64,000 nucleotides of DNA from a bacterium (GTDB lineage: Bacteria; UBA10199; JADFYH01), in assembly GCA_046346885.1 (NCBI GenBank), contig JAXMHI010000008.1, positions 52,049 to 116,048 on the forward strand, in the 5' to 3' direction. The first letter of the stretch is position 1, and each line of letters starts with the position of its first letter. The notes beneath the pieces are model-generated. The model was given only the letters and a program-made list of their open reading frames with translations, searched no databases and was not told the origin of the DNA. Shown here in pieces: positions 1-57,298 of this stretch. The position numbers and the translations under genes are program-made.

Positions 1-243
1 AAGGTCGTCATCCAAAAGATCATCAAAGATGAAAGCGAACATTTGAATTATCTCGAACGGATGATCGAGCACTTTCCCGCCGACCTTTCGTTGAAAGATT
101 CCCCGCTTTTCGAGTTTGAAGAAAATTGCTTCATCGACTATATAAAAAGGATGAGGCAATATTTCGAAACGTCGGGGACGAATGACGAAATCAAGCCGGT
201 CAGTCCCCCCAAAGCCTTCGCCGAACGGCGACAGGCGGGATGA
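1..243 (+). CDS. 3' end of an unidentified protein (possible ferritin-like E-x-x-H motif); partial at window edge
   Basis: Open frame from window start to TGA at 241-243; translation ...KDESEHLNYLERMIEHF...; no recognisable family. Confidence 0.3.
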   Translation, partial: KVVIQKIIKDESEHLNYLERMIEHFPADLSLKDSPLFEFEENCFIDYIKRMRQYFETSGTNDEIKPVSPPKAFAERRQAG

Positions 244-253
244 TTCCTCGCTT

Positions 254-2512
254 ATGGTCTTTCAGCAAGATTCTCTGAAGACCCTCTCGAACATCGCCCG
301 CATTCTTCAGAAATCCCATCCTTCGGAAAATCCCCTCGCTCATATCGTGACGATCGTGCGCGATCAGATCGGCGTCGACGTTTGCTCCCTCTACCTCCTC
401 CAAGAAAAAACCTTGGTTTTGGTTGCCACCGACGGGCTCGATCCCGCTTCCGTGGGACAAGTGCGCATGCGGGTGAGCGAAGGTTTGACCGGGCTCGCCG
501 TCGAGAAGCTTCAACCGGTGATCGTCAATGAGGCGAGCCGGCATCCCCGCTTTAAATATTTTCCCAAAACGGGGGAGGAGAAATTCTCTTCTTTCGCCGC
601 CGTTCCTCTTTTGGATCGAGACCAAGTGATCGGCGTGCTCACCCTCCAAACCGCCCAAGCCCGCGAGTTTAGCCCCCACGAGATCGAGATTTTGAAGTTG
701 ATCGCCTTTCAGCTCTCGGGCGTTGTTCAAAATTTGGTTCGACTCGAAGTATTGCAGCAGGAAGGCAAGTCGGAGAAACGCCCGCAACAACTCTCGGGCA
801 TCCCCGTGGCCCCCGGCTTCGGCATCGCGGCGGCTTTTTTCTTAAGGCCCGGCGTTTCTCCCGTGGTGCTCCCTTTCGACCGCACCACGAAGCTGTCTCC
901 GAAAGAGGAATGGAAGAAGCTGAAGACCGCCATGGATAAGGCCTCGAAAGATTTGGCGAGGCTCGAGAAAAAGCTGCAGAAAAAGTTTTCGAAGAAGGAA
1001 TCGGACATTTTTTATTCGCACCGAATGATTCTCTCCGATCCTTCCTTTCAAAAAAAGCTGAAGACCGAGGTTCAGAAGGGCAAAAGCGCCTTCGACACCG
1101 TCGGGCAGGTGATTGGAGACTATATCCGCCATTTCGAGAAGGTGGAAGATCCCCATTTTCGCGAGCGGGCCGCCGATCTGGAAGATTTGCGGCAACGGGT
1201 GCTTGAGCACTTGGTCGGCACTAAAGTCGCCCGCTCGAAGCAGAAACTCGAAGGAATTTTAATCGCCGAAACCTTAGTGCCCTCCGATACGGCCCGGCTC
1301 GACCCCGAGCTCATCAAAGGCATCGTCACTTCCCGGGGCGGGCTCACTTCTCACGCGGCCATCTTGGCGCGTTCCCTCGGCATCCCAGCGGTCATGGGGA
1401 TCGGCGGGGTCGTAAACAAGATACAACCGGGAGATTTGCTCATCGTCGACGGCAACGAGGGAAAAGTTTACGTTCATCCCGAGCGCCCGGTGCTGCGAGA
1501 GTACGAGAAAATCCAAGAACGTTACGCCGACCGCATCGTGCACCTGCAGAAATTCGCCGGGGAGCCGGCCCATACGCGCGACGGGGAGCGCGTGCACGTG
1601 GAGGCCAACGTGGGCCTCATCTCCGATTTGAAGAAGCTCCGCTATTTCGGAGCCGAGGGTGTGGGACTATACCGCACCGAGTTCCCCTTCATGATGCGCA
1701 AGCGCCTGCCCGACGAGGAGGAACAGTTTGTTCTTTACCGCAAGGTGGTGGAAGAGGCGGGGGGACTGCCCATTACCTTCCGCATTTTAGATGCGGGGGG
1801 AGACAAACCCGTCGAGGCTTTGGGTATGACGCCGGAGGCGAATCCTTTCTTGGGTTACCGCTCCATCCGTCTTTTCTTGAACCGGCCGGAAATTTTAGAA
1901 ATTCAATTCCGAGCCCTCTTGCGCGCTTCCCTCGTGGGTCCGGTATTGGTGCTGGTGCCCATGATCTCGGGGTTGGAGGAGCTTCGGGCGATCCGAGACA
2001 TTTTCAAGGGCGCCCAGCAAAATTTGAAGCGGCGGCAAATCGAGTTCGACGCGAAAGTTCCCTTCGGCATCATGATCGAAGTGCCTTCGGCGGTGCAGAT
2101 GGTACGCCGCTTCGCCCCCGAGGTGGATTTTTTCAGCATCGGAACCAACGACCTCACCCAATATACCCTGGCGGTGGACCGAAACAACGAGCGCGTTTCC
2201 TCCTTCTTCGAACCTCTGCATCCGGCCGTGATCCAATCCATCGCCCGCGTCGCGAAGACGGGGAGGGAATTCTTAAAGCCGGTGGGCGTTTGCGGCGAGA
2301 TGGCGGGAGATCCCAAAATGGCCCCGCTGCTCGTCGGCTTGGGCGTTACCCAGCTTTCGATGATTCCCGCCAACATTCCCCTCGTGAAAAAGGTGATCCG
2401 CGAAATTGATTACGCCGAAGTGAAGCAAATGGCCGAGAAGGCCCTTGAAGCCGGCACCGTTGAGGAAGTGAGGGAGTTGTTGAGGCCCTTCGGGCGTTAT
2501 GCGGAGTCTTGA
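254..2512 (+). CDS. ptsP: Phosphoenolpyruvate-protein phosphotransferase PtsP (GAF domain + Enzyme I, nitrogen PTS)
   Basis: N-terminal GAF-like region; PEP-utilizing enzyme motifs GGLTSHAAILARSLGIPAVMG and SIGTNDLTQY. The ORF track starts at 182, but the ATG at 254 (MVFQQDSLKTLSNIARIL) aligns with the PtsP N-terminus. Confidence 0.85.
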   Translation: MVFQQDSLKTLSNIARILQKSHPSENPLAHIVTIVRDQIGVDVCSLYLLQEKTLVLVATDGLDPASVGQVRMRVSEGLTGLAVEKLQPVIVNEASRHPRFKYFPKTGEEKFSSFAAVPLLDRDQVIGVLTLQTAQAREFSPHEIEILKLIAFQLSGVVQNLVRLEVLQQEGKSEKRPQQLSGIPVAPGFGIAAAFFLRPGVSPVVLPFDRTTKLSPKEEWKKLKTAMDKASKDLARLEKKLQKKFSKKESDIFYSHRMILSDPSFQKKLKTEVQKGKSAFDTVGQVIGDYIRHFEKVEDPHFRERAADLEDLRQRVLEHLVGTKVARSKQKLEGILIAETLVPSDTARLDPELIKGIVTSRGGLTSHAAILARSLGIPAVMGIGGVVNKIQPGDLLIVDGNEGKVYVHPERPVLREYEKIQERYADRIVHLQKFAGEPAHTRDGERVHVEANVGLISDLKKLRYFGAEGVGLYRTEFPFMMRKRLPDEEEQFVLYRKVVEEAGGLPITFRILDAGGDKPVEALGMTPEANPFLGYRSIRLFLNRPEILEIQFRALLRASLVGPVLVLVPMISGLEELRAIRDIFKGAQQNLKRRQIEFDAKVPFGIMIEVPSAVQMVRRFAPEVDFFSIGTNDLTQYTLAVDRNNERVSSFFEPLHPAVIQSIARVAKTGREFLKPVGVCGEMAGDPKMAPLLVGLGVTQLSMIPANIPLVKKVIREIDYAEVKQMAEKALEAGTVEEVRELLRPFGRYAES

Positions 2513-8657: not shown

Positions 8658-10025
8658 ATGCCGAAAGCCCAAACCGTTTTTTCCTGCCAAAACTGCGGTT
8701 ACCAATCGCCCAAGTGGTTGGGCAAATGCCCCGATTGCAACAAGTGGAACAGTTTCGCCGAGGAGAATTTCCAAGCCGCTCAGCCGACCGCCGCGCGTTT
8801 CTCGGATCCCGGCTTCGTGACGTTGTGTTCCGAAGCGCTTCCCATCACCGAAGTGACCTCCCAATCCGTCGCCCGCTTCACCTCCGGCAACAGCGAGCTG
8901 GATCGCCTTTTGGGGGGCGGCATCGTTCCTTCCTCGCTTACGCTCTTGGGCGGCGATCCCGGTATCGGGAAATCCACACTCGTCCTGCAAATGTTGGGAG
9001 CGGTAACCGAGAATGCACCCGTCCTCTACGTTTCGGGGGAAGAATCGGCGAGCCAGATCAAGCTGCGAGCGGAGCGTTTGGGCGTGCGTTCCGATCGTCT
9101 CTTCGTCCTCTCCGAAAATAATTTGCGCAAGGCCATCCAGGCCGTGGAGAAAATTCAGCCGAGACTCCTTGTCGTCGATTCCATCCAAACCGTTTTTCTT
9201 CCGGAGCTCGAATCGGCCCCCGGCTCCTTAACCCAAGTGAGGGAATGCGCGGGCAAGCTCCTCTACGTCACGAAAAGCCAGCCCATGGCCACTTGGCTCG
9301 TGGGACACATGACGAAGGAGGGAATGATCGCAGGGCCGAAGGTGCTCGAACACTTGGTGGATACCGTCCTTTATTTCGAAGGGGACAAGGGGCAGGCTTA
9401 TCGATTACTCCGGACCAACAAGAACCGCTTCGGTTCCACCAATGAAGTGGGCGTGTTTGAGATGGCGGGGCAGGGCTTGCTGCCCATCCAAAACCCCTCC
9501 GCGCTTTTCCTCTCCGATTCGGCGGAAGCGGCGCCCGGTTCGGTGGTGGTGTCCAGTTTGGAAGGAACGCGGCCTTTCCTCGTCGAAGTGCAGGTGCTGG
9601 TGACTTCTTCCAACTTAGGCATGCCGCGTTGGGTTTCTTTGGGTGTGGATGGCAACCGTTTGTCGCTTTTGGTGGCCATTTTGGAAAAAATCGTCGGTCT
9701 TTCTTTTGCCGGGATGGATATTTTCGTCAACGTGGTGGGTGGTTTGAAACTGAGCGAAACCGGTTGCGATTTGGGCTTGCTCGCCGCCTTGGCTTCGAGC
9801 CATCGAGGAAGGCCCCTTCAACGGGGAACTGTACTGATCGGTGAAGCGGGACTTTCCGGCGAGGTAAGGCCCGTCGCCCAGATCGATCTTCGTTTGGCCG
9901 AGATTGAGCGCTTGGGTTTCAAACGGGTCATTCTTTCGCATAAGACCCCGAAACCGAAAGGAAAAGGGAGTTTGGAGTTGGTTTTCGTGAAAGACGTTCA
10001 AGAAGCGTTGGAAGTCCTCCTTTAA
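8658..10025 (+). CDS. radA: DNA repair protein RadA/Sms
   Basis: N-terminal zinc finger CQNCGY...CPDCNKWNSF; Walker A GGDPGIGKSTL; KNRFG motif; C-terminal Lon-like domain. ATG at 8658 chosen. Confidence 0.9.
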   Translation: MPKAQTVFSCQNCGYQSPKWLGKCPDCNKWNSFAEENFQAAQPTAARFSDPGFVTLCSEALPITEVTSQSVARFTSGNSELDRLLGGGIVPSSLTLLGGDPGIGKSTLVLQMLGAVTENAPVLYVSGEESASQIKLRAERLGVRSDRLFVLSENNLRKAIQAVEKIQPRLLVVDSIQTVFLPELESAPGSLTQVRECAGKLLYVTKSQPMATWLVGHMTKEGMIAGPKVLEHLVDTVLYFEGDKGQAYRLLRTNKNRFGSTNEVGVFEMAGQGLLPIQNPSALFLSDSAEAAPGSVVVSSLEGTRPFLVEVQVLVTSSNLGMPRWVSLGVDGNRLSLLVAILEKIVGLSFAGMDIFVNVVGGLKLSETGCDLGLLAALASSHRGRPLQRGTVLIGEAGLSGEVRPVAQIDLRLAEIERLGFKRVILSHKTPKPKGKGSLELVFVKDVQEALEVLL

Positions 10026-46941: not shown

Positions 46942-47868
46942 ATGCGTATAGGGAAAGCACTCGTTTTCCTGTGTCTTTTGTGGATGACCGCCTGCGGTTC
47001 TTCCACCTCCGGCCAGCCCGCGCCGGCTCTCTTATCACCGGGCGATTACAATCAAACCCTTTTTGCAGGCGGCGTTCAGCGCCGGTACATCCTTCACGTT
47101 CCTTCCGGCTATGACGGCTCGAAGGCCTTGCCCCTCTTGTTCGTTTTGCACGGTCACGGTGGGTCGGCGGAAGCGATGAGGCAGAGCACGGGCTTCAACC
47201 AAAAAGCGGATGAGGAAAGTTTTTTTGTTGCCTATCTTCAGGGAACGCTCGGGTCAGACGGTGTGCCCGGATGGAATACCGGGATCAGCCCGGGTCTCGA
47301 TATCAACGTGGATGACGTGGATTTCGTGCGGATGGTGGCCTCGCAACTGCAAGGGCAAGTAATCGTGGATGCGAACCGTATCTATGCCGCCGGCTTCTCC
47401 AACGGGGGTATGATGTCCCACCGGCTCGGAGCGGAGCTCTCCGACCTACTGGCCGGTGTCGCCGTCGTGGAGGGCACGATCGGAGTTCGTCAGCCCGACG
47501 GGACGTTTTTAACGACCTCGATTCCGATGGGGCCGATTCCCGTGCTGATGATTCATGGGAAGCAAGACGCCACTCTTCCCTATGAGGGAGGCCCGTCGGG
47601 AGTGGGTGAGCATCTCGAAGTGAAATCGGCCGCGGATGCCGTCGCTTTTTGGAACCAAGCCGATGTTTGTGCGGGATCCGCTCAGACGCAAACCAGCGTG
47701 GACGGGAACACGATCACCGCCGACTACGCGGCTTGCGCTTTCGGCAGCGAAGTGGAGTTGATTACTTTGGTGAATGGAATTCACCAGTGGCCCAATCCGG
47801 GGAATCCGGGAGAAATCTCGGGGAGTGATGCGGTTTGGGATTTCTTCGCGCGGCATTCGAAGAGCTGA
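46942..47868 (+). CDS. Lipoprotein alpha/beta-hydrolase, esterase / PHB-depolymerase-like family
   Basis: Lipobox LWMTACG; PLLFVLHGHGGS and nucleophile-elbow GFSNGG motifs. Confidence 0.65.
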   Translation: MRIGKALVFLCLLWMTACGSSTSGQPAPALLSPGDYNQTLFAGGVQRRYILHVPSGYDGSKALPLLFVLHGHGGSAEAMRQSTGFNQKADEESFFVAYLQGTLGSDGVPGWNTGISPGLDINVDDVDFVRMVASQLQGQVIVDANRIYAAGFSNGGMMSHRLGAELSDLLAGVAVVEGTIGVRQPDGTFLTTSIPMGPIPVLMIHGKQDATLPYEGGPSGVGEHLEVKSAADAVAFWNQADVCAGSAQTQTSVDGNTITADYAACAFGSEVELITLVNGIHQWPNPGNPGEISGSDAVWDFFARHSKS

Positions 47869-47977: not shown

Positions 47978-50900
47978 TCACGCCGACTGCTTGAGTTCCT
48001 TTAAAATCTTATAAAAGTATCCCTGAGAAACCCCCAGCCATTTGATGGCGGTGTAAGGCTTCGCCCCTGAATATTCGTGGGCTGCCTGAAAGACTTTCTT
48101 CACGTAGTCTTGCAGGGTGAGGTTCGCGTCGTAGAGGAAGGGGTTTTGGAAGAGCGCGTTGTTGGCGTTGGCAAGGTCGAATTCTTTGATGCGCTTGTAG
48201 ACGGTGGCCAGCGAGAGGTCGAGTACTTCCGCCGTCTTGGAGGGATTGGATCCCTGAGTTTGATACGCTTTTGCGGTAATCAATTTTTCGTAGTCGTTCC
48301 AAGTCATGTTGGGGTCGTAGAGGTTTTGCCCGTCGATGAGCACCCTCACGCCCGGCGCAGCCCCTTTGCTTATTACCGGCGGCGTCGCGCTTTCGCCTAC
48401 GGCGGCCGCCGCAGGAGACGCGGCGGCTTTCGCGCCCGAATCGATGTTTCGCCGAATTCCGTAGCTGGTCGGGAGCGATTCGTAGGTGAGTTCGTCGTGG
48501 TCGGCCAGGGCGGTGGCCACCGAGATGATGTTTTCCAACTCGCGCACGTTGCCCGGCCAATCGTACTCCAATAATTTTTTCATGAAAGAAGGAGCCAGCT
48601 TCAGATCCCTCTCGATGCCGTGCTGCTTGCGGTACATCGACATGAATTTCTCCGCCAAGAGAGGGATGTCTTCCTTGCGGTTGCGCAGGGGAGGCAGGTC
48701 AATCTTGATTTGGCAGATGCGGTAGAAAAGATCTTCGCGGAAACGCCCCGTCTTGATTTCTTCCTCTAAATTCTTATGGCTCGCCGCGACGATGCGCACG
48801 TCGACGTTGTAGGTTTTCGTGTCGCCCACGGGCGTGATTTCCGCCTCTTCCAACACGCGAAGCAGCTTTACCTGCAGGTTCATGTCGAGCTCTGCCACCT
48901 CGTCTAAAAAGAGCGTGCCGCCGTCGGCCTCGACGAAGAGGCCTTTCTTGTCCTTCGTCGCCCCCGTGAAGGAGCCGGCCTTATGGCCGAAGAGCTCGCT
49001 TTCCATGAGGTTCGCCGGGATCGCTCCGCAGTTGATGGCGACGAAGCGCTTATCTTTTCGGATTTTGTTGTTGTAGTGAAGGGCCTTCGCGATGAGTTCC
49101 TTTCCGGTTCCCGTCTCGCCGTTGATGAAGACGGCCAGCGAGGTTTCGGTGATTTTGTCCAAGAGACGGAAGATGTCGTACATCGCCTTGCTCTTGGCGA
49201 TGATCTTCTCGTAGGAGTATTTCGTCGGGATGTTGATCGACTCTTCCTCCATGATCGCTTGGTAGGCCGACACTTCGTTTTCCGCTTCCTCCAATTTTTT
49301 CCTCAGCTCGAGCTCCGCCTGCTGGTACTGATTGATCAATTTCGCGTTTTCGATCGCGATCCCCACCTGGTCGCAGAAGGCCATGAGCACCTTGAAGTTG
49401 ACCCTCTTGAAGGCGCCGGGGCGATAGCGGTTATCCAAGTAGAGTACGCCCACCGTCTTGTTGCGCGACTGGATGGGCAGGCAGAGGATGGAGCGCAGCT
49501 TCAAGATCATCACCGATTGATATTCATTAAAGCGGTTGTCCCCCGAGGCGTCGTCCGTTTGCACCGGCTCGCCCGAATTCAAGACGCGTTCGGCGATGCT
49601 CGTCGAGATCTGGGCTAAGTTGGGGGAGAGCTCGGCGTTGAGGCAGGCCTTCACTTCGAGCGTGCCCTTTTCGTCCACGAGGAGGATGAGGCCGCGTTCC
49701 GCATGCGAAAGTTCCAGGGCGTTGTGCAAGATCGTCTTCAAGAGAAAGTCGAGGTTGTGCTCCGAGTTCAAATATTTGTTGAGGGTGAGGATATACTCGT
49801 ATTCCTTCTCGAGAGTCGCCAGCCCGCTGCCTGAGTCTTCGTGCACCTCCACGGGGGCGGCCACCTGCTTTTTCACCTCCGGCTTGGGGGAGGGAACCAC
49901 CATGGTCACTCCACCCATCATCTTTTCGATTTCCTTCAAATCTTCTTTCTGTTCCGGCTCCGTGGCGAGTTCGCGGGTTTTCTCCAAGCTTTCCTGGGCC
50001 TCTTCCACCCGCAGTTGGTCGATGTAGAGTCGCGTGAAGGCCCCGTGCACCCAGTAGAGTTGACCTTTGAGGCTGGTATTCTGCTCGATGAGCCCCAGCG
50101 CGTCCCGCAGGGCGTCGCGGGAGACCTCGAATTTCTTCTGCTTGCGCAATACGTCGCCCATCTCGAGCTTGGCGCGGGCGAGAAAGTAAAGTTGGTAGGC
50201 GGTTTTCTGGGGGATGCGCTCTAAGAGGAAGATCGCGTTCACCAAATGGGGGTGCGAGTCTTCGTAGTGTCCCGACTCGTTGTAGATGATGCCCATGTTG
50301 GCGGCGATGGCCGCCTGCGAGTTGATGTCTTGGATCTTCTGGCTGATAGCCAAGGCTCGTCCGTAATAGTGGAGCGAGTTCTCGATGTCGCGGTTCACGT
50401 TGTATACGTTGCCCAAGCCGTTATAGGCGCGCAACAGCAGCTCGTAATAGCGGTGGGCCTTCGAGATTTCCACGCAGGCCTTATATTGCTCGATCGTGTG
50501 GTTTAAATCCTTCAGCGCATAATACACTTCCCCCAAATGATAATGGGTACGGGCGGTGAGGAAGTGGTGATGGATCGACTTGTAGAAATCCAGATCTTTC
50601 TGGAATTGGGCCAGGGCCTTCGGATAGTCGTGCTTCAAATGGTAGACGGTGGCCAGATCGTTATTGAGCACTTCCTTGCGTTCATTTTCCTTTAGTTCTT
50701 CTTCCCACACCTTGTGGGTGTTTTCGAAAATTTTCAGGGCCTCGTCGAGTTTCCCCTCCACGATGCGTGCTCGTCCCATGTAGTTTTCGATGATGAGGCG
50801 CTTGCCCGTACTCAAATCGAATTCTTCCAGAAGGGCGATCGCCGACGAGAAAATCTCTTTCGCCTTGTCCGGTTCGTGGCGCTTTAAGTAAATGACGCCC

Positions 50901-52987
50901 AATTTCTCGTAGACGTCGATCTTCCAGTGGATGTTGTCGCCCAGGTTCTTCACTTCCTTCAGGCGGTTGCGGATCGTGTCGAAGAGTTCGCCCGCCTTGT
51001 TGAGGTCTCCTTCCTTCAGTAAGGCGTCTCCCAGTTTGAGCGCCACATTCATCTGGGTGGTGAGGTCGAGCGAGCCGGATTTTTCGTATGCTTTCTCCAA
51101 AAAATCTTTCGCTTCCCCCGTTCTTCCTTCGCTTAAGGACTTCTCCCCCAGTTCGATGAGCGCCTCCAACGATTCCTTGCCTTGGTCGCTCGATCCCAAA
51201 TGATAGAGGTATTCGCTTTGCCTTAAAGGTTGGTCCTTCAATACTGCGGCAATTTTTTTGTGCAGCGTGTTTTTCTCCGTGGCCTTCAGGTTGGCCACGA
51301 TCGCCTTGCGAAGCAGGGGGTTCTTGAAATCGTAGGATTGGGTGCGGTCTTCCCGCTCCAAAATGCCTTCCTGCGCCAGGTGCGCCACCGTCTCGGGCAC
51401 GGCCTCGGCGCCGGTGAATTTGACGAGTTCCTCGAGGGAAGTCTCGCGGCCCACCAGGCTTAGGGTCTTGAGCACTTTCTTTTCCAAGTCGTTGCGGGTC
51501 TCGAATTGGTGCAGCAAAAACTCTTCGATGGTGGAAGGGACTTGGATCTTCGAGAAATCGATGCCCAAATCCTCATAGGTGGAGGCCTTCCAGCGGCCGT
51601 GACTGTCGAAGAGCAGGCCGCGGCTGATGAGCGCCTTGAGGAGTTCGGAGACGAAGAGGGGGTTGCCTTGGGTGCGTTGATAGAGTTCGTCGATGAGCAC
51701 CGGCGGAGGCGATTCCAAGCCCGTCATGGACGCGACGTAATCGCGCAGCTCCATCTTATTGAAGGGTTCGAGAGGCCAGGCCGCCGTGTCGGGCCCCGTT
51801 TTGAAATCTTCCGTCGTGGCCGCCAAGATCAGAAGGGAAGCGGGAAAGCTCACGAGAAAAGTCTGCAGTTTCTCGTAGTCTTCCCCGTTCAAGTCGTCCG
51901 CCACCACAACGTGGCCCGTTTGAAACTCAAGCGAGACCCCTCGACGGAAAATAAAGACCGGCGCGTTGTTGAGTTGGGCGTGAAAGCGGAACTCCTTGAG
52001 CAAACGGCTCTTGCCGATGCCGCTCGGGCCTTTGAGCAGCAAGATCTTCTTCTCCATGGGGTTGCTTAAGTTCTGCGTGAATTGCCCGAAGATCTCCTTG
52101 AATTGATCCAACTCCTTCTTGCGGCCGATGAGCTGGCCTTCGCCGGGCAGGTAAGAGAGGAGGGTGTCGGTGGTTTCGATGTCGTAATTTTTACCGGAGA
52201 GTTGGTTGAGTTCTCGGATTACCGAGGCCGCGCTCGTGTAACGGTCCGACGGATTTTTCGCCAAGAGTTTTTTGAGGATCGTGTCGAGGTATTTGGGAAT
52301 CTCTTTTCTTAGCTGCGTCGCGGGCGGGGGCGTGAGCGTCTGTTGGCGGTTGAGCGTTTCGGTCAACTGCTCGCTGCGGAAAGGATTCGTGCCCGTCAGG
52401 CACTCGTAGAGCACGACGCCCAATGAATAAAGATCGGCGCGGCCGTCGGGACGGTCGCCCAAGATAATTTCGGGGGCCATATAAGAAGGCGTCCCGGCCA
52501 TCTTTCCTTTTGGTTTGTAGCCAGCCAAGCCGAAGTCGATGATTTTGACGATCTTCTCCGACTTCGCGTCTTTACCCACGAGCATGTTCTGCGGCTTTAA
52601 GTCGAAATGATAGATGGCATGGGCGTGCAGATATTCGAGGGCGCGCAGCGACTGCACGAAGAGGTTCTCGATGGTTTCGACGGATTGATCTCGGCATGCT
52701 TCTAAAAGGTTTGGACCGTCGATGAATTCGGTGGTGAAATAATATTGATCTTGGTTCGCCTCGTAACCGAAGTCGTGAATGCGGGCCACATGGGGATGGT
52801 TCAGCTCTTTGAGCAGCGTGAACTCGTTTTTGAAATTGGCGATGGCTTCTTCTTTCGAAAAACTGATTTGAGAACTTTTGAGAAATTTGAGGGCGTAAAG
52901 GCCGGTAGGATCCTTGGCTAAGAGGACTTCCCCAGAAAAACCGCTCCCCAGTTTCTTGACCACTTCGTATTTGCCGTCAATATTCAC
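47978..52987 (-). CDS. Giant multidomain regulator: non-RD Ser/Thr kinase + P-loop NTPase + TPR repeats + GAF + sigma54-interaction AAA+ domain + two Fis-type HTH
   Basis: 1669 aa. Kinase motifs LGSGFSGEV, ALKFLK, HFDLKPQN, DFGLA, GTPSYMAPE. P-loop LLLKGPSGIGKS. TPR-rich middle. EBP motifs GETGTGKE, GSFTGA, GTLFLDEV, FREDLFYRI, PPLRNRKEDI. C-terminal HTHs. Confidence 0.8.
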   Translation of the reverse strand: MNIDGKYEVVKKLGSGFSGEVLLAKDPTGLYALKFLKSSQISFSKEEAIANFKNEFTLLKELNHPHVARIHDFGYEANQDQYYFTTEFIDGPNLLEACRDQSVETIENLFVQSLRALEYLHAHAIYHFDLKPQNMLVGKDAKSEKIVKIIDFGLAGYKPKGKMAGTPSYMAPEIILGDRPDGRADLYSLGVVLYECLTGTNPFRSEQLTETLNRQQTLTPPPATQLRKEIPKYLDTILKKLLAKNPSDRYTSAASVIRELNQLSGKNYDIETTDTLLSYLPGEGQLIGRKKELDQFKEIFGQFTQNLSNPMEKKILLLKGPSGIGKSRLLKEFRFHAQLNNAPVFIFRRGVSLEFQTGHVVVADDLNGEDYEKLQTFLVSFPASLLILAATTEDFKTGPDTAAWPLEPFNKMELRDYVASMTGLESPPPVLIDELYQRTQGNPLFVSELLKALISRGLLFDSHGRWKASTYEDLGIDFSKIQVPSTIEEFLLHQFETRNDLEKKVLKTLSLVGRETSLEELVKFTGAEAVPETVAHLAQEGILEREDRTQSYDFKNPLLRKAIVANLKATEKNTLHKKIAAVLKDQPLRQSEYLYHLGSSDQGKESLEALIELGEKSLSEGRTGEAKDFLEKAYEKSGSLDLTTQMNVALKLGDALLKEGDLNKAGELFDTIRNRLKEVKNLGDNIHWKIDVYEKLGVIYLKRHEPDKAKEIFSSAIALLEEFDLSTGKRLIIENYMGRARIVEGKLDEALKIFENTHKVWEEELKENERKEVLNNDLATVYHLKHDYPKALAQFQKDLDFYKSIHHHFLTARTHYHLGEVYYALKDLNHTIEQYKACVEISKAHRYYELLLRAYNGLGNVYNVNRDIENSLHYYGRALAISQKIQDINSQAAIAANMGIIYNESGHYEDSHPHLVNAIFLLERIPQKTAYQLYFLARAKLEMGDVLRKQKKFEVSRDALRDALGLIEQNTSLKGQLYWVHGAFTRLYIDQLRVEEAQESLEKTRELATEPEQKEDLKEIEKMMGGVTMVVPSPKPEVKKQVAAPVEVHEDSGSGLATLEKEYEYILTLNKYLNSEHNLDFLLKTILHNALELSHAERGLILLVDEKGTLEVKACLNAELSPNLAQISTSIAERVLNSGEPVQTDDASGDNRFNEYQSVMILKLRSILCLPIQSRNKTVGVLYLDNRYRPGAFKRVNFKVLMAFCDQVGIAIENAKLINQYQQAELELRKKLEEAENEVSAYQAIMEEESINIPTKYSYEKIIAKSKAMYDIFRLLDKITETSLAVFINGETGTGKELIAKALHYNNKIRKDKRFVAINCGAIPANLMESELFGHKAGSFTGATKDKKGLFVEADGGTLFLDEVAELDMNLQVKLLRVLEEAEITPVGDTKTYNVDVRIVAASHKNLEEEIKTGRFREDLFYRICQIKIDLPPLRNRKEDIPLLAEKFMSMYRKQHGIERDLKLAPSFMKKLLEYDWPGNVRELENIISVATALADHDELTYESLPTSYGIRRNIDSGAKAAASPAAAAVGESATPPVISKGAAPGVRVLIDGQNLYDPNMTWNDYEKLITAKAYQTQGSNPSKTAEVLDLSLATVYKRIKEFDLANANNALFQNPFLYDANLTLQDYVKKVFQAAHEYSGAKPYTAIKWLGVSQGYFYKILKELKQSA

Positions 52988-53125
52988 CGTTTTGTCTCCT
53001 CAATAAGGGTGGAATGGCTTATTTTGGACTAAAATATGAGTATATACAAATTAAAATATGTGGTGTCTCTATTCTCCAGAATAAAGAAACGTATTCTAAA
53101 TTTTAAGCCTTTCCCAACTGCATAA

Positions 53126-53154
53126 TTTTAAAATCTTTTAAAATCATATAGTTG
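53126..53154. promoter_or_regulatory. AT-rich upstream element: 2x10-bp tandem repeat TTTTAAAATC plus IHF-like site AATCATATAGTTG
   Basis: Direct repeat at 53126-53145, overlapping a near-match to the IHF consensus WATCAANNNNTTR; located 35-70 nt upstream of the sigma54 promoter. Confidence 0.3.
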
Positions 53155-53179
53155 CTGATTTTAATCAAAATAAAAAGCT

Positions 53180-53195
53180 TGGTACGTGCTTTGCT
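53180..53195 (+). promoter_or_regulatory. Sigma54 (-24/-12) promoter
   Basis: TGGTACGTGCTTTGCT versus consensus TGGCACG-N4-TTGCW has one mismatch and correct GG/GC spacing. It lies 45 nt upstream of the small ORF at 53240 and is divergent from the sigma54-activator gene. Confidence 0.55.
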
Positions 53196-53239: not shown

Positions 53240-53386
53240 ATGGGTATGGCCCTTCAAGAAATGGATCAAATGATTTTATGCGAGCTCGAAGAGTTGCTCG
53301 AGCATCAGATCAGCCAAAGCAATTTGGAGTTGCAAGAACTCCTCAAAATGAATCCTCAAATTCCTCCTCCCCCCGAAGAGTTATAA
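53240..53386 (+). CDS. Small acidic 48-aa peptide (unannotated in the ORF track)
   Basis: ATG with strong SD AAAAGGAG 7 nt upstream; MGMALQEMDQMILCELEELLEHQISQSNLELQELLKMNPQIPPPPEEL; sits downstream of the sigma54 promoter. Confidence 0.35.
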   Translation: MGMALQEMDQMILCELEELLEHQISQSNLELQELLKMNPQIPPPPEEL

Positions 53387-53582: not shown

Positions 53583-55394
53583 ATGCGGCACACTTTTCTC
53601 CCTTCCAGTCTTATTTCTCCAAAAAAGAACGGAAAGAATTCTTTTATCCAAGGCTTAGGCCGTTTTCTTTTGCTTTTCGCCCTCACGGCTTGTGCCGGGG
53701 CGGGGGCTCCGGGAGGCGGCGCCACGCCGGTGGGTGGGGGAGAAGGTTTAAGCAATGCGGGCGCACCGCCCATTTCGCTTCCCGGACCGGAGGCCCTCAA
53801 TATGAACGGCGTCTCCGTTTCGAGCGACGGCAGCGGCACGGCCACGGTCACCACGGCCCCGGGAACGGGATCGCCGGGCAACTACACGGGCGTGCGCAAT
53901 ATCGGCGACGTGGCATGGTATCAACCGGTGAGAGAATTTTTCATCCGCTCCGCCTATGCGGTGGGGGAAAGCGTCAACCTCCCCATCGGGCCCAACGGTT
54001 CCACCGTGCCTTCGCCTTTTACCATTCCCGCCAAGATCGGCGATTGGCTTGAGTTCAAGCAGTGCTTGAAAGCGAATCCCAATATCTGCAGCGCGGGGTT
54101 CCGCATCGAAGTCATCTTGGGCACGAATAACGGCGGCACCGCCGTGTTCTCCTCGCCCCCCACGAAGTTCTCGATCGATCCGGGCAAGGGTCAGATTTAT
54201 TACATGATGAAGGAACCCAAAAAGGGTTGGGATTGGAAGACCCTGTTCGTCTCCACCGCCTACGCCCAAGAGGCCCACGGGCCCGGCCCCCTCAACGTTG
54301 ATTTAAGCGATTTTACCGCCGCCACCTGCGGCTTGCCTGCTTTTGCTTCCACCCCCGCGCCGACTCCCAAGGATGAAGGCAACGTATGCACGGTGAAGGG
54401 GAATAACCACAACCCGGGCGTCATTGAAGAAGTCGCGAAGATCAACTGCAATCCCCAAGGGGAAAACCGCGGCGTTTATGCCTATGACGACGTGGGAATG
54501 CCTCGGTTGGCCGTTTGGTCGGCCAACAAGCTTATCGTGCTTTCCCATTTGGATTCTCCCACGATCACCCTCGAGAAAAAATGGGTGTATCCCGCGGATA
54601 TTTCCCACGTGCAAAGCATCGGGGGCCATTTGATCGTCTTCCTCGACCGCAAAGGAAACGATTCGCTTCCCCACTTTTACGTCGACACGGCTTGCGCGTC
54701 GAATCCCGTCATCGACAACGTCGAGCAATTCATCGGATTCGACAATAACGGCAGCACTCCCAGCTTCGGTCGGGGAGGCGAGTTCGTGGCCACGGTGAAG
54801 AATCCCCGCGGCTATTGCGCCATCGTGGGCACTTCCACCCGCGACAACCCCGTCGCCTCGGTGAGCGAGGAGTATTGCCAAAGCCTGCCTCTGACCGTCG
54901 TCCAGATCCTTCCGCGGGCGGATGATTCCGTGCCGGTGTGCGGCCTTAATTACGTAGTGTTAAGCCCCAACCGGGGAGAATTGATTTATACGTTCCATCC
55001 TTTTGATTCCGTCCGCGATCCCCGCTGCGTCGCGGAGCCGGCCGGGGAGGCGCGGTCGAAGCATTTTACCATTCCCGGCGCCGTAGCCCCGGTGAGCTTC
55101 GTCTTGGGGAACTCGAGCGCGGAGCGTAACGATCCCGTTTTAGTGGTGCTCGATTCTCCCGCGGATAAGAAATCGAAATTGATTCCGTTCAAGTTGGAAG
55201 CGGTCGGCTACAAGTTCAACCTGGCGGCCGACCCCACGAAGGTGCAGGAGCTCCCGATACGGGGAGCCGCGGTGGGGTACGACCACAATAGTTTCATTTC
55301 CTACCCCTCCGATCTGACGGCGAGCCCGGAGCCTCATAGAACCCGTGGCACGATTTTCGGTTCGGATGCCGAACCAGGGACGTTGATGCGATGA
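53583..55394 (+). CDS. Lipoprotein of unknown function, paralog 1 (Gly/Ala/Pro-rich N-terminal stalk, Cys-containing globular region)
   Basis: Lipobox LTACAG; 603 aa; shares N-terminal ~70 aa and scattered blocks (FTAATC...CNP...LAVWS.NKL) with the next gene. Confidence 0.6.
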   Translation: MRHTFLPSSLISPKKNGKNSFIQGLGRFLLLFALTACAGAGAPGGGATPVGGGEGLSNAGAPPISLPGPEALNMNGVSVSSDGSGTATVTTAPGTGSPGNYTGVRNIGDVAWYQPVREFFIRSAYAVGESVNLPIGPNGSTVPSPFTIPAKIGDWLEFKQCLKANPNICSAGFRIEVILGTNNGGTAVFSSPPTKFSIDPGKGQIYYMMKEPKKGWDWKTLFVSTAYAQEAHGPGPLNVDLSDFTAATCGLPAFASTPAPTPKDEGNVCTVKGNNHNPGVIEEVAKINCNPQGENRGVYAYDDVGMPRLAVWSANKLIVLSHLDSPTITLEKKWVYPADISHVQSIGGHLIVFLDRKGNDSLPHFYVDTACASNPVIDNVEQFIGFDNNGSTPSFGRGGEFVATVKNPRGYCAIVGTSTRDNPVASVSEEYCQSLPLTVVQILPRADDSVPVCGLNYVVLSPNRGELIYTFHPFDSVRDPRCVAEPAGEARSKHFTIPGAVAPVSFVLGNSSAERNDPVLVVLDSPADKKSKLIPFKLEAVGYKFNLAADPTKVQELPIRGAAVGYDHNSFISYPSDLTASPEPHRTRGTIFGSDAEPGTLMR

Positions 55395-57298
55395 AAAAAC
55401 ACCCCCTCCATCTTTTAAGTTTTTTATTCTTCGTTTTAAGCCTGATCGCTTGCGCGGGCGCGGGTGCGCCCGGAGGAGGGGCGTCGCCGGTCGGGGGCGG
55501 CGAGAGCGGCATCGGTACCGGCAATGCGGGCGCCCCACCCATCTCGATTCCCGGGCCCGAGGCTTTGAACATGGACGCCGTCACCGTGAGCGCTCCGGAT
55601 TCCGCGGGCAACGTGACGGTGACGGGGATGACGGGCGCGGGCACTCCCGGCCAAGAAGCGCGGTTGCGCGACATCGGCAGCGTGACGAGCCGCCGATGGC
55701 CCAACAAGATCGAGAAACTCTTTATCCCCAACGCCGTGGCGGCGGCCGGGGGAAGCTGCAACATCAAGGTGCTGCCGGACGGAGCTTTCAAATGCATCAT
55801 CTCCGGAGCGGCCGTGGGCGACTTCATCGCCATGAAGCAATGCGATTTCAGGGGCAACTGCAGCGCCGAGCTCGCCAAGCAAGTGCTCGCCGTCGACAAT
55901 ACTTCGGGTCCCGCGACCATCGTCACGCCCCCGACGGTGAAGGGTATGACGGTCGATTCGAAGGGGAACATCTTTACGAACAGTTCCAATAAATCGTGGA
56001 AGTGGACCGATCTTTTCATCTCAAACGCCTACGGGGCGGATGAAGGTCATGATTCGGAACCTACTCCCCACGTTTCGACGACCGTCTTAACGCCGACCCC
56101 TTCCGTTGTAGGCACCGCTCCCATAAATTTGGAGGGGCGCCTGAACCCTTTACAGGGCTTCACGGCGGCCACTTGCGCCGATCTCCCCGCCGATTATTCC
56201 CCGGCCCCGGCGGCGTCTCCCGCGGGTAAAACCTGTACGCTCAAGAAGACGGGCAGCGACGGGAACGCGGAGGTGCTGGCGACCCTTACGAATTGCAATC
56301 CCGAAGCGGGCGGCATCTACTATTTCGAGCAATCGGCGCAGCAAAAACTCGCCGTTTGGTCGGAGAACAAGCTTTGGGTGATCAACACCAACCAGAAAGG
56401 CCCCTCGGCCGTCGAGGAAAAGCGCGTTTATTGGTCGAACATCAGCGGCGTGCAGGCGATCAACGACGGGGTGGGGTCCGATAACCTTTTCGTCGTGTTG
56501 GAGCAAAAAACCGGCGCCAATTACCCCCTCCTGGCGATCAACCACGATTGCATCGGTTTCGGCTATGTCCGCGAACTTGCGCCGGCCCGCAAAGTGACCG
56601 GTTTCACTTCGTTCGGCAGTTCGTTCATGATGTCCGTCGATTTCGGGCGCGAGTCGTGTCTGGTCTTCGGTTCTTCCGGGGAAATCACGATCGGGGCCTT
56701 AAATAAAGACCCCGTGACCTGCCAGGCCGCCCCCTTCACCGACGTGGGGATCTTGAAGGCGGAGATTTGCGGTCTTCAATACGTCGCGCTCAGCCCCGAT
56801 ACCAAGGAGTTGATCCAGGGTTTCCATGCGACCAATTTGGGTTACGGGGGATGCAATACGCCCAGCTATATCATCTCAAAGAGGTCGATCCAGGATTCCG
56901 GCAAGCCCGTGAGCCTCGCTGTCGGACGGGACCGACATTCCCGGGGAGATAAGGTAGTCGTGCTGGTGACTCCCACCGGCGAAAACGAGCATGCAAAATT
57001 GTTCCCCTTTCAAGTGAACGACCGAGACAATCGCGTCACTCTTCAATCGATGATGCCGGTCGATTTGGGGGTCATGAAGCCGACTCTTCTGCGCTATAGC
57101 TCGAACGGCACGTCGGAAGACGGGCAATTCGTCACCAACGTCGTTGACACGACTGCTTCTTCCAATCGTTCCTCCTACGTGTATCAGCGGTCTTCCGATT
57201 TCAAGACCTTCAACCTGCCGACGGTCAACAGCGATGCCCTGAAGGCTATCGATAAAAATGCCATCGAGCGATCTCCCAATCCTCCCCGCATCCGTTAG
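55391..57298 (+). CDS. Lipoprotein of unknown function, paralog 2
   Basis: Lipobox LIACAG; 635 aa; its ATG overlaps the stop of paralog 1 (ATGA). Confidence 0.6.
   Translation: MKKHPLHLLSFLFFVLSLIACAGAGAPGGGASPVGGGESGIGTGNAGAPPISIPGPEALNMDAVTVSAPDSAGNVTVTGMTGAGTPGQEARLRDIGSVTSRRWPNKIEKLFIPNAVAAAGGSCNIKVLPDGAFKCIISGAAVGDFIAMKQCDFRGNCSAELAKQVLAVDNTSGPATIVTPPTVKGMTVDSKGNIFTNSSNKSWKWTDLFISNAYGADEGHDSEPTPHVSTTVLTPTPSVVGTAPINLEGRLNPLQGFTAATCADLPADYSPAPAASPAGKTCTLKKTGSDGNAEVLATLTNCNPEAGGIYYFEQSAQQKLAVWSENKLWVINTNQKGPSAVEEKRVYWSNISGVQAINDGVGSDNLFVVLEQKTGANYPLLAINHDCIGFGYVRELAPARKVTGFTSFGSSFMMSVDFGRESCLVFGSSGEITIGALNKDPVTCQAAPFTDVGILKAEICGLQYVALSPDTKELIQGFHATNLGYGGCNTPSYIISKRSIQDSGKPVSLAVGRDRHSRGDKVVVLVTPTGENEHAKLFPFQVNDRDNRVTLQSMMPVDLGVMKPTLLRYSSNGTSEDGQFVTNVVDTTASSNRSSYVYQRSSDFKTFNLPTVNSDALKAIDKNAIERSPNPPRIR

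Follow-up and report, generated by a model that had tools for sequence, protein, structure and literature searches.

A conserved one-chain family of uncultured bacteria that fuses a Ser/Thr kinase, a STAND-type core and a sigma54 activator

The fusion gene and its relatives

The window, i.e., the whole 64-kb stretch of DNA analysed here, encodes a 1669-amino-acid protein in which a Hanks-type Ser/Thr kinase, a STAND-type P-loop region, TPRs, a GAF domain, a sigma54 enhancer-binding protein (EBP) and two Fis-type HTHs follow one another in a single chain. Divergently from this gene, a sigma54 promoter precedes a small ORF and two tandem lipoprotein-like genes (Table 1). The start codon of the fusion gene has a ribosome-binding site (GAGGAG) about 9 nt 5' of it, and the N-terminus that it predicts agrees with that of the homologues (M-x-IDGKYE). 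A reading made from the sequence only had claimed one ORF with all of these modules. This holds: there is one open frame, the modules are recovered by Pfam and by predicted folds, with Pkinase and Sigma54_activat both found by Pfam in the same protein, and every motif that had been quoted is present. There is next to no chance that a sequencing or assembly error has merged two or more genes, and nothing was found in favour of this; the frame is uninterrupted, and over 100 independent assemblies (NCBI, JGI, ENA, Logan) contain collinear full-length homologues of the same architecture, which excludes both a frameshift and an artificial gene fusion.

Table 1. Features of the fusion gene, its product and the divergent genes, in window coordinates
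Feature	Residues (aa)	Position (nt)	Strand	Remarks
Fusion gene, 1669 aa (kinase-STAND-TPR-GAF-sigma54 EBP-2xHTH)		47978..52987	-	Complete, GTG start
Hanks-type Ser/Thr kinase domain	7-253	52229..52969	-	Pfam Pkinase 1.5e-48
HFDLKPQN catalytic loop	127-134	52586-52609	-	Non-RD
Kinase-to-NOD linker motif ETTDTLLSYLP	271-281	52145..52177	-	T272, T275 and Y279 invariant (116/116)
STAND NOD (NBD, helical domain, winged helix)	~285-567	51287..52135	-	Pfam AAA_16 and predicted fold
TPR array	~568-1020	49928..51286	-	Pfam TPR_12 x4 1.6e-33; PDB TPR matches
GAF domain	1077-1213	49349..49759	-	Directly N-terminal to AAA+; Pfam GAF/GAF_2 ~1e-15
Sigma54-interaction AAA+ and lid	1262-1510	48458..49204	-	Sigma54_activat 7.1e-68; AAA_lid_14 1.5e-21
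GSFTGA loop	1338-1343	48959-48976	-	GAFTGA-type
Tandem Fis/NtrC-type three-helix HTH pair	1548-1664	47996..48346	-	Predicted fold
Sigma54 -24/-12 promoter TGGTACGTGCTTTGCT		53180..53195	+	Sole exact TGGYAC-N5-TTGCW match in 64 kb
48-aa ORF		53240..53386	+	RBS AAGGAG; first gene past the promoter; conserved solely in the window's clade
Lipoprotein-like gene, 603 aa		53583..55394	+	Signal peptide and Cys; conserved N-terminal domain
Tandem lipoprotein-like paralogue, 635 aa		55391..57298	+	33% identical to the 603-aa protein

The fusion had also been called rare and uncharacterised. The first stands only in part, since NCBI already has an identical, automatically annotated protein (MFO1519422.1, 100% identity), and the architecture is shared by no fewer than 116 full-length homologues (90% clustering, 34-100% identity), which fall into about 40-70 clusters at 50% identity. 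The family-specific tandem HTH was found (E<=1e-10) in 72 representatives of 50%-identity clusters, and the tandem-HTH motif also led to 14 complete ORFs on metagenome contigs, every one a kinase fusion and all but one (13/14) equipped with the EBP module. In a survey of GTDB genomes with generic EBP peptides, 79 of the 80 loci listed were ordinary EBPs or unfused kinase and EBP neighbours, the sole true fusion among them being in a MAG labelled "Nitrospirales" (L007); separate kinase and EBP genes adjoin in some Myxococcota and KSB1 MAGs (L008, L011, L014). The family is thus uncommon yet well populated, and not a one-off. The second description so far holds, as no account of the fusion came up in full-text literature searches, which left many subscription papers outside their reach. 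All family members found stem from metagenomes or MAGs, with source labels such as "Deltaproteobacteria bacterium", "Pseudomonadota bacterium" or "bacterium". We conclude that the protein is real and belongs to a conserved, experimentally unexplored family of one-chain signalling proteins in uncultured bacteria.

Modules of the chain

Kinases of the RD subclass carry an Arg before the catalytic Asp that is coupled to activation-loop phosphorylation. Non-RD kinases are active kinases too; they are independent of activation-loop phosphorylation and typically not controlled by phosphorylation themselves. Here the triplet is HFD, and across the family residue 128 is never listed as Arg (Phe 87, Leu 16, Cys 5, Tyr 3, Ser 2, Gly 2). 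In the short activation segment, T166, a structural residue, is the sole conserved Ser/Thr. With neither a conserved phospho-acceptor nor an Arg at 128, the domain is a non-RD kinase, and its short segment fits a kinase that is not gated by loop phosphorylation. The remaining kinase motifs are in place (GSGFSGEV, 14-21; Lys34; DFG, 151-153; SYMAPE, 168-173), and none of the 116 homologues deviates at the G-loop, K34, E55, H127, D129, K131, N134, DFG or the APE region. The earlier description of an HFD kinase that retains its catalytic Asp and DFG is therefore correct, with the qualification that this is a family-wide trait and not peculiar to this protein. Between kinase and NOD, the linker has low pLDDT and is flexible in the AlphaFold model; its ETTDTLLSYLP motif is a candidate phospho-acceptor or docking segment.

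By its predicted fold, the P-loop region is a STAND module. Pfam AAA_16 covers aa 285-353 (35.8 bits, cut-off 32.6), and the AlphaFold model of aa 268-612 (pLDDT 83) has the NBD, helical domain and winged helix of such proteins, in a chain that also has a repeat sensor and terminal effectors. The top Foldseek match of this model is PH0952 (6mfv, 9.6e-10), along with Apaf-1 (1z6t/3sfz), CED-4 and MalT (8bob) at E values of 1e-9 to 1e-8; Avs3 and plant NLRs are matched as well. In the NOD, Walker A reads GPSGIGKS (320-327) and Walker B VVVADD (360-365), with the Walker A Lys kept in 109/116 homologues and the Walker B Asp in 95/116, and it is the conservation of these two residues that speaks for nucleotide use by the NOD. 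The window's clade has an unusually short Walker A-Walker B spacing (33 residues) and a NOD region ~27-40 residues shorter than that of most homologues. The TPR array that follows, on which TPR_MalT scores 43.7 bits, slightly below its cut-off of 45, is presumed to be the sensor/arm region of the module.

The usual switch of a sigma54 activator is a receiver, PAS, GAF or V4R domain, or else a partner protein. The GAF domain here (Pfam envelope 1079-1212, 7.7e-15) is placed like those of NifA, NorR and FhlA, directly before the AAA+ domain. In NorR, the GAF domain keeps the AAA+ domain repressed until a signal arrives (PMC2941729). The AAA+ module is complete: Sigma54_activat at aa 1262-1429 spans positions 1-167 of the 168-position profile, AAA_lid_14 follows at 1435-1510, and Walker A/B, sensor and arginine-finger motifs are present. 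GETGTGKE (1290-1297), GTLFLDEV (1357-1364), FREDLFYR (1416-1423) and GNVREL are conserved, and PPLRNRKEDI lies at 1432-1441. EBPs must oligomerise, and their GAFTGA loop contacts sigma54 through a motif in which Phe and Thr are essential (PMC7057263). In the family, the second position of this loop is Ala in 68 homologues and Ser in 48, F1340 is Phe in 115/116 (one Tyr), and T1341, like K1296, D1362 and E1363, is invariant in 116/116. Since the active residues of kinase, EBP and NOD are conserved in the 116 homologues, all three nucleotide-using modules appear to be under selection for activity.

The C-terminal HTH DNA-binding domain of an EBP is likewise present, by predicted fold. Neither HTH exceeds the Pfam threshold (HTH_8 has E 1.1e-3 on the first and no match on the second), but the AlphaFold model of the C-terminus (pLDDT 97) shows two three-helix bundles, each of which superposes on the DNA-binding domains of NtrC1/NtrC4 with an rmsd of 0.9-1.1 A. 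The second bears the signature LGVSQGYFYK, which is specific to the fusion family. In one relative (L103), the whole AAA+ module is missing and the promoter is retained, which suggests that DNA binding without activation is also viable.

The divergent sigma54 promoter and its genes

The sequence-only reading had placed a sigma54 promoter next to the fusion gene, and comparison across the family strengthens this assignment. At 11/14 loci, against ~1.07 expected, there is a divergent -24/-12 site at a distance of 100-370 nt upstream from the fusion gene, and at 9/14 it reaches a score of at least 10, against 0.25 expected; the three loci at which no such site was found are L006, L093 and L096. 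The promoter is also kept in relatives only ~38-50% identical, in which the spacer sequences differ. From this pattern, it is probably the target of the activator. No rpoN gene or RpoN box was found within the 64-kb window or any fetched family locus. Searching the AT-rich intergenic DNA by k-mer enrichment and for repeats, we could define no enhancer (UAS): TAAAATAG occurs in 6/15 loci, and some 8-mer reached 6 in 2/200 shuffles. The window's intergenic region holds marginal repeat candidates, namely a direct repeat of TAAAATATG at 53030/53052 and inverted repeats at 53063-53090 and 53115-53154.

At the promoter-bearing family loci, a lipoprotein-like gene always comes after the promoter, and the N-terminal domain of its product is shared between loci; in the window the 603-aa gene is probably the regulated gene. 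The small ORF in between has 44-58 aa homologues in L001/L089 and L005/L087. In the window's clade, the small ORF is followed by a second conserved promoter-like block, not of sigma54 type, ahead of the lipoprotein gene, so that in this clade the sigma54 promoter may chiefly drive the 48-aa ORF. The lipoprotein-like proteins matched no Pfam, NCBIfam or PADLOC family; distant members give weak NHL/lactonase hints. The wider neighbourhood is housekeeping in character, and its synteny (smpB, ribonucleotide reductase, bio operon, SLT-LysM) is kept in relatives down to 57% identity. The conserved divergent sigma54 promoter with its downstream lipoprotein gene at family loci is new here.

Control of the kinase and the activator

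Several known systems share parts of this design. PknK of Mycobacterium tuberculosis and other STAND Ser/Thr kinases resemble the N-terminal ~1000 residues of the fusion in that, judged by module order, both run kinase-NOD-TPR sensor. However, PknK ends at the sensor, whereas the fusion has a non-RD kinase and adds GAF-sigma54 AAA+-2xHTH, a module through which it could act on a promoter directly. One JGI homologue (P0096) has been auto-named "PknK". With MalT of Escherichia coli and PH0952, the fusion has in common the NOD fold, the TPR sensor and a DNA-binding effector at one end. In MalT, a LuxR-type HTH recruits sigma70 RNA polymerase, whereas the output of the fusion is a second ATPase ring (the sigma54 EBP) together with a kinase; the fusion, unlike MalT, thus has two oligomerising NTPase modules per chain. 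TOMM kinase/cyclase fusions (TIGR03903) and other Pkinase-AAA_16 proteins follow a like design of Hanks kinase, STAND/TPR and second effector, but the TIGR03903 match is restricted to the kinase (169 bits against a cut-off of 706), and the second effector of the TOMM proteins is a nucleotide cyclase.

At the other end of the chain, the NCBIfam model of NifA aligns with aa 1062-1605 (GAF, AAA+ and HTH), and the NorR and FhlA models also align with the C-terminal ~600 residues. The fusion stays below every equivalog cut-off (NifA 353 against 529 bits, NorR 305 against 476), and it has ~1060 extra N-terminal residues and two HTH bundles instead of one. Orthology to NifA was rejected on the TIGR01817 score (352.9 bits, cut-off 528.85) and on the lack of nif context around the fusion gene. 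Jelsbak et al. reportedly described, in 2005, FHA-domain EBPs of Myxococcus xanthus that are linked to Ser/Thr kinases. Those EBPs also connect Ser/Thr phosphorylation to sigma54 activators, and two of the MAG loci that pair kinase and EBP genes (L011, L014) are from Myxococcota; in M. xanthus, however, kinase and EBP are separate proteins that meet via the phospho-binding FHA domain, whereas the fusion is covalent and has no FHA domain.

STAND proteins are platforms that activate effectors through induced proximity. The superfamily is closed with ADP and open with ATP, an inducer triggers multimerisation, and its main bacterial members are MalT-like activators and PknK-like Ser/Thr kinases, with effectors at either end (PMC4381067, PMC6468293). 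By likeness to MalT and PH0952, an inducer-driven ADP/ATP switch with multimerisation would be expected of the fusion as well (PMC4381067, PMC6468293). We give an even chance to a MalT/PknK-type STAND switch in which a signal opens the core and oligomerisation then puts the EBP ring together and brings the kinase domains into a cluster. At rest, an ADP-bound NOD would be shut, under autoinhibition from the TPR sensor, with the GAF domain keeping the AAA+ domain off. A signal on the TPR sensor, possibly joined by a small molecule on the GAF domain, would open the NOD and let ATP replace ADP; the NODs would then multimerise, and the EBP AAA+ domains would form an ATP-hydrolysing ring whose GSFTGA loop touches sigma54. 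The tandem HTHs would anchor the protein in the AT-rich intergenic region, where the divergent promoter would be opened and the small ORF and lipoprotein genes turned on. NOD clustering would also gather the kinase domains. Because a non-RD kinase needs no phosphate on its activation loop, the clustered domains could then act, giving a second output if their substrates are other proteins, or feeding back on the switch if they modify the invariant T272/T275 linker.

The anatomy of the protein suits a STAND core that switches two terminal effectors no less well than it suits the coupling of phosphorylation and sigma54 activation within one molecule, which had been the first interpretation of the fusion. 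It must be said that the stoichiometries of a STAND oligomer and an EBP hexamer need not match, which counts against the switch. So do the lack of a definable enhancer, the three loci without a -24/-12 site, the second promoter-like block in the window's clade, the loss of the AAA+ module in L103, the failure to find rpoN in the window or the fetched loci, and the short Walker A-Walker B spacing of the clade's NOD. The linkers at aa 1021-1065 and 1511-1547 are poorly conserved (mean conservation 0.10 and 0.06), and such variable linkers could accommodate differing ring stoichiometries. Taken further, the switch might work as an NLR-like "signalosome", in which ligand-driven STAND oligomerisation templates the covalently attached sigma54 ring, fires the non-RD kinase at the same time and controls a conserved envelope lipoprotein module; we put this fuller version forward tentatively, as a possibility well short of even.

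In the alternative of a cis phospho-switch, the kinase takes the place of the NtrC receiver, autophosphorylation of the chain (in cis or between subunits) releases or assembles the AAA+ ring, and STAND, TPR and GAF only tune the kinase. The kinase active site is invariant family-wide, T272, T275 and Y279 in the flexible linker are plausible acceptors, and the adjacent kinase and EBP genes at L008, L011 and L014 hint at a wider kinase-EBP partnership. We nevertheless regard this as unlikely, if deserving of some weight: ~1000 residues and a complete STAND switch part the kinase from the AAA+ domain, the linkers flanking GAF and AAA+ have no conserved Ser/Thr, non-RD kinases are not as a rule under phosphorylation control, and the ET..TLLSYLP...GR stretch may be no more than an ordinary N-terminal extension of AAA_16-type NODs.

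The family-wide absence of the HRD Arg and the short activation segment could be read as marks of a pseudokinase scaffold that aids dimerisation or sensing within a large STAND-regulated sigma54 activator, but this is quite improbable, given that non-RD kinases are active and that catalytic residues invariant in 116/116 homologues, at divergence down to ~35% identity, follow the pattern of an active enzyme. An Avs/NLR-like antiviral STAND protein with kinase and AAA+ effectors is highly improbable: the fold search does match Avs3 and plant NLRs, and PADLOC kinase and RtcR-like AAA+ models match at the domain level, but the PADLOC matches span single generic domains with no full-length system match, the conserved housekeeping synteny is not that of a defence island, and the chain ends in a full sigma54 activator that includes DNA-binding domains, its cognate promoter being conserved.

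Two things limit the value of the find: public databases already contain the architecture, with automatic annotation, and the modules, taken one by one, are well understood. If the signalosome version of the STAND switch is true, it would be a mode of EBP control not described so far, and one sensor would give both a transcriptional and a phosphorylation output. The family could reveal whether an AAA+ activator ring can arise through STAND multimerisation, and by what route Ser/Thr phosphorylation connects to sigma54 transcription. Its conserved target, a divergent -24/-12 promoter with a lipoprotein gene, makes it experimentally approachable.

Architecture of the fusion protein

The sequence-only reading had proposed that a kinase and a sigma54 enhancer-binding protein (EBP) are joined in one polypeptide. 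The gene is indeed a single unbroken ORF of 1669 codons, starting at GTG with a ribosome-binding site (RBS), GAGGAG, ~9 nt upstream, and all of the motifs quoted for it were found in the expected place in the protein. Pfam confirmed both Pkinase and Sigma54_activat, plus AAA_16, TPR, GAF, and AAA_lid_14. The last 600 residues align with NifA, NorR, and FhlA-type GAF-AAA+-HTH activators (NCBIfam), missing all equivalog cut-offs; the fusion protein does not reach the NifA, NorR, or PknB-PASTA equivalog cut-offs. In sequence and fold, it qualifies as a Hanks kinase (non-RD subclass), a STAND NTPase, and a sigma54 EBP. The fusion architecture is real, and an artefact is disfavoured by database homologues of the same architecture.

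Structure prediction refined two regions. Modelling aa 268-612 in AlphaFold from 12 family sequences (pLDDT 83) gave PH0952, a STAND protein with a TPR sensor, as the top PDB match (6mfv, 9.6e-10), and Apaf-1, CED-4, MalT (8bob), Avs3, and plant NLRs are other leading matches. Since the best matches are STAND proteins, the P-loop region is, by its modelled fold, a genuine STAND nucleotide-binding oligomerisation domain (NOD), with NBD, helical domain, and winged helix. At the C-terminus, the only Pfam match is HTH_8, which falls below threshold and is confined to the first segment; the second has none. The model of aa 1548-1664 (pLDDT 97) has two successive three-helix bundles, each superposing to within 0.9-1.1 Å on the DNA-binding domains of NtrC1 and NtrC4, so the earlier call of two Fis-type HTHs is right by predicted fold. 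The pair as a whole has no match among solved structures.

Features of the window and of the fusion protein
Feature	Position	Strand	Remarks
PtsP (EI-Ntr) architecture gene	182-2512	+	GAF + PEP-utilising enzyme domains
Ser/Thr kinase, 1237 aa	21572-25285	+
Ser/Thr kinase, 1293 aa	26058-29939	+
Esterase/PHB-depolymerase-like gene	46942-47868	+	between fusion gene and SLT-LysM gene
Fusion gene	47978-52987	-
Kinase-NOD linker motif ET..TLLSYLP	52145-52177 (aa 271-281)	-
AT-rich intergenic region	52988-53180
Direct repeat TAAAATATG x2	53030, 53052		22 nt apart
Inverted repeat around ATTCTCCAGAAT	53063-53090		13-nt arms; core also in L005/L087 and L004
Inverted repeat	53115-53154		19-nt arms; in AT-rich region
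sigma54 -24/-12 promoter TGGTACGTGCTTTGCT	53180-53195	+	sole exact TGGYAC-N5-TTGCW match in 64 kb
48-aa ORF MGMALQEMDQMILCELEELLEHQISQSNLELQELLKMNPQIPPPPEEL	53240-53386	+	good RBS; directly after sigma54 promoter
Promoter-like block GACTCAACTTT-N15-CGATAA	53461-53492	+	between 48-aa ORF and lipoprotein gene
Lipoprotein-like gene 1	53583-55394	+	signal peptide + Cys
Lipoprotein-like gene 2	55391-57298	+	signal peptide + Cys; tandem paralogue, 33% identical to gene 1
Pkinase	aa 7-253		Pfam 1.5e-48
Kinase motifs	aa 14-21, 34, 127-134, 151-153, 168-173		GSGFSGEV (G-loop), Lys, HFDLKPQN, DFG, SYMAPE
AAA_16	aa 285-353		Pfam, above its cut-off
STAND P-loop motifs	aa 320-327, 360-365		GPSGIGKS, VVVADD
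TPR array			Pfam TPR_12 x4, 1.6e-33; TPR_MalT just below its cut-off
GAF	aa 1079-1212		Pfam ~1e-15
Sigma54_activat	aa 1262-1429		Pfam 7.1e-68, whole profile covered
EBP motifs	aa 1290-1297, 1338-1343, 1357-1364, 1416-1423, 1432-1441		GETGTGKE, GSFTGA, GTLFLDEV, FREDLFYR, PPLRNRKEDI
AAA_lid_14			Pfam match

Extent and conservation of the family

The description of the fusion as rare was overstated. An identical protein is in NCBI (MFO1519422.1, 'MAG: sigma 54-interacting transcriptional regulator [bacterium]'), all of the best 120 database matches carry both PF00069 and PF00158, and at least 116 of them span 1550-1750 aa, with 34-75% identity across about the whole length. Several homologues were auto-named by JGI 'transcriptional regulator with GAF, ATPase, and Fis domain/serine/threonine protein kinase'. 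Among 1.84 billion 50%-identity cluster representatives, a tandem-HTH profile found 72 at E<=1e-10 and 39 at <=1e-30, the complete ones being 1380-1690 aa. A metagenome scan with the family signature LGVSQGYFYK, from the second half of the tandem-HTH region, gave 25 loci, 14 with a complete ORF; all 14 start with an HFD/HLD kinase and 13 have the sigma54 module. Generic EBP peptide queries listed at least 80 loci from GTDB genomes; among the 80 listed was one true fusion, in a MAG labelled 'Nitrospirales'. The named sources seen were all MAGs. Taken together, these searches indicate a coherent, moderately large family, uncommon rather than a one-off.

Some relatives differ in composition. One subgroup (P0091, P0093, P0097, P0109, P0110, and P0113; 1500-1623 aa) has kinase, AAA_16, TPR, and Sigma54_activat with no GAF Pfam match, so some of the wider family can do without the GAF domain. 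The complete ORF without a sigma54 module (L103 5280-9530, contig Ga0315276_10001485; 1417 aa) aligns with aa 2-1235 and 1549-1667, lacking the entire AAA+ module, yet its gene still adjoins a lipoprotein gene and, in divergent orientation, a strong -24/-12 promoter, TGGCACTCTACTTGCT. Either this variant occurs naturally without an activator, or a segment was lost in the assembly. In KSB1 (L008), Archangium (L011), and Myxococcaceae (L014) MAGs, a separate kinase gene (HQD in L008, HRD in the others) adjoins a separate sigma54 EBP gene on the same strand, which might be a two-gene counterpart of the fusion.

In a MAFFT alignment of 116 full-length homologues, kinase residues K34, E55, H127, D129, K131, N134, and DFG are invariant, which disfavours a pseudokinase. 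The HRD-arginine position is F (87), L (16), or else C, Y, S, or G, so the non-RD state is a trait of the whole family. The NOD keeps its Walker A lysine in 109 of 116 and its Walker B aspartate in 95; in the EBP module, K1296, T1341, D1362, and E1363 never vary, F1340 is replaced once, by Tyr (F in the other 115), and the second GAFTGA position is A (68) or S (48). Given this conservation, all three nucleotide-using modules look functional. The kinase activation segment is short, with the structural T166 as its only conserved Ser/Thr. The sole conserved Ser/Thr cluster outside folded domains lies in the kinase-NOD linker, predicted flexible, where T272, T275, and Y279 are invariant (116/116); conservation is essentially absent from two further linkers, aa 1021-1065 and aa 1511-1547. 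The organism is kinase-rich: two other very large Ser/Thr kinases in the window have the kinase domain mid-chain and an FGE-sulfatase-like domain at the C-terminus.

The divergent promoter and its probable target genes

The fusion gene had also been placed next to a sigma54 promoter, and an exact consensus match does lie in the 595-bp region separating it from the divergent genes. We surveyed the 14 family loci with enough upstream DNA, taking the background rate from the same loci. A -24/-12 site with at least 9/12 consensus positions is present in 11 loci (~1.07 expected) and missing in three; at least 10/12 is reached in nine (0.25 expected). The sites lie 100-370 nt from the fusion gene, always directed away from it. 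They include relatives at only ~38-50% identity with differing spacers (e.g., TGGCACTTCTCTTGCT, TGGCACTCTACTTGCT, and TGGCACTGGGATTGCT), in which the promoter directly precedes a lipoprotein gene homologous to the window's proteins over the first ~110-130 residues (APPVxLPAPITGRIxVSxPDxxGxVxVTG). No other functional clue obtained is as strong as this unit of fusion gene, divergent sigma54 promoter, and lipoprotein gene, which makes the lipoprotein gene a probable target.

The two lipoprotein-like proteins belong to no Pfam or NCBIfam family, and the 48-aa ORF has no family match. Its 44-58 aa homologues occupy the same position in L001/L089 and L005/L087, loci of the window's clade, and are absent from distant family loci. 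The gene smpB comes next after the lipoprotein-like pair, and 57-62%-identity relatives keep SLT-LysM, ribonucleotide reductase, bio genes, and smpB. On the other side, SLT-LysM directly follows the fusion gene in L001, L004, and L006, so the window's esterase/PHB-depolymerase-like gene looks like a local insertion.

A second block, (G/C)ACTCAACTTT-N15/16-CGATAA with GGGCAC after it, precedes the lipoprotein gene in four window-clade loci (the window, L001 ~9560-9590, L005, and L006), and L006 keeps it though it has neither sigma54 site nor small ORF. With AAC at -35 and CGA/T at -10, the block looks like a promoter of the ECF-sigma type, so the lipoprotein genes may also be transcribed from a second promoter that does not depend on sigma54. 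The intergenic repeats, together with TAAAATAG (shared by 6 of 15 family loci in one orientation, a marginal result versus shuffles), are candidates for the sites that the tandem HTH binds; no enhancer was definable in the family intergenic regions. A search for rpoN in the 64-kb window and fetched loci did not find it there. The PtsP gene belongs to the nitrogen phosphotransferase system (PTS), and the rpoN operon is where genes for the partners of PtsP usually lie; the PtsP gene is the only hint, and an indirect one, of an rpoN-linked nitrogen PTS and sigma54 use in the genome.

A proposed STAND switch between two effectors

In STAND proteins as described in the literature, the resting NOD is closed on ADP and autoinhibited by the TPR sensor; inducer binding opens it, ADP is exchanged for ATP, and multimerisation activates effector domains at the chain ends by proximity (PMC4381067, PMC6468293). 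As the main bacterial branches, the literature names MalT-type activators and Ser/Thr kinases of the PknK type (PMC4381067, PMC6468293). EBPs require ring oligomerisation for ATP hydrolysis and sigma54 remodelling via the GAFTGA loop (PMC7057263), and in NorR the AAA+ domain is repressed by the GAF domain that immediately precedes it (PMC2941729). Taken together, this literature makes a STAND switch that carries an effector at each end the best-supported reading, one that we infer by analogy. A signal would drive NOD multimerisation, which would bring the attached EBP modules together as a ring at the divergent promoter while also clustering the non-RD kinase; the substrates of the clustered kinase might then be other proteins, or the threonines that are invariant in the linker. 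A less probable alternative, the one first proposed, is that the activator is gated by phosphorylation of the molecule itself. A role as a defence system is disfavoured.

Among known systems, the protein would resemble PknK and MalT in the working of its first 1000 residues, and NifA and NorR in that of its last 600. It is set apart by having two oligomerising NTPase modules covalently joined, a kinase in addition, and a tandem HTH. The fusion protein combines known kinds in a new way, is present in databases, and is unstudied, and its family comes with a conserved, testable target promoter.
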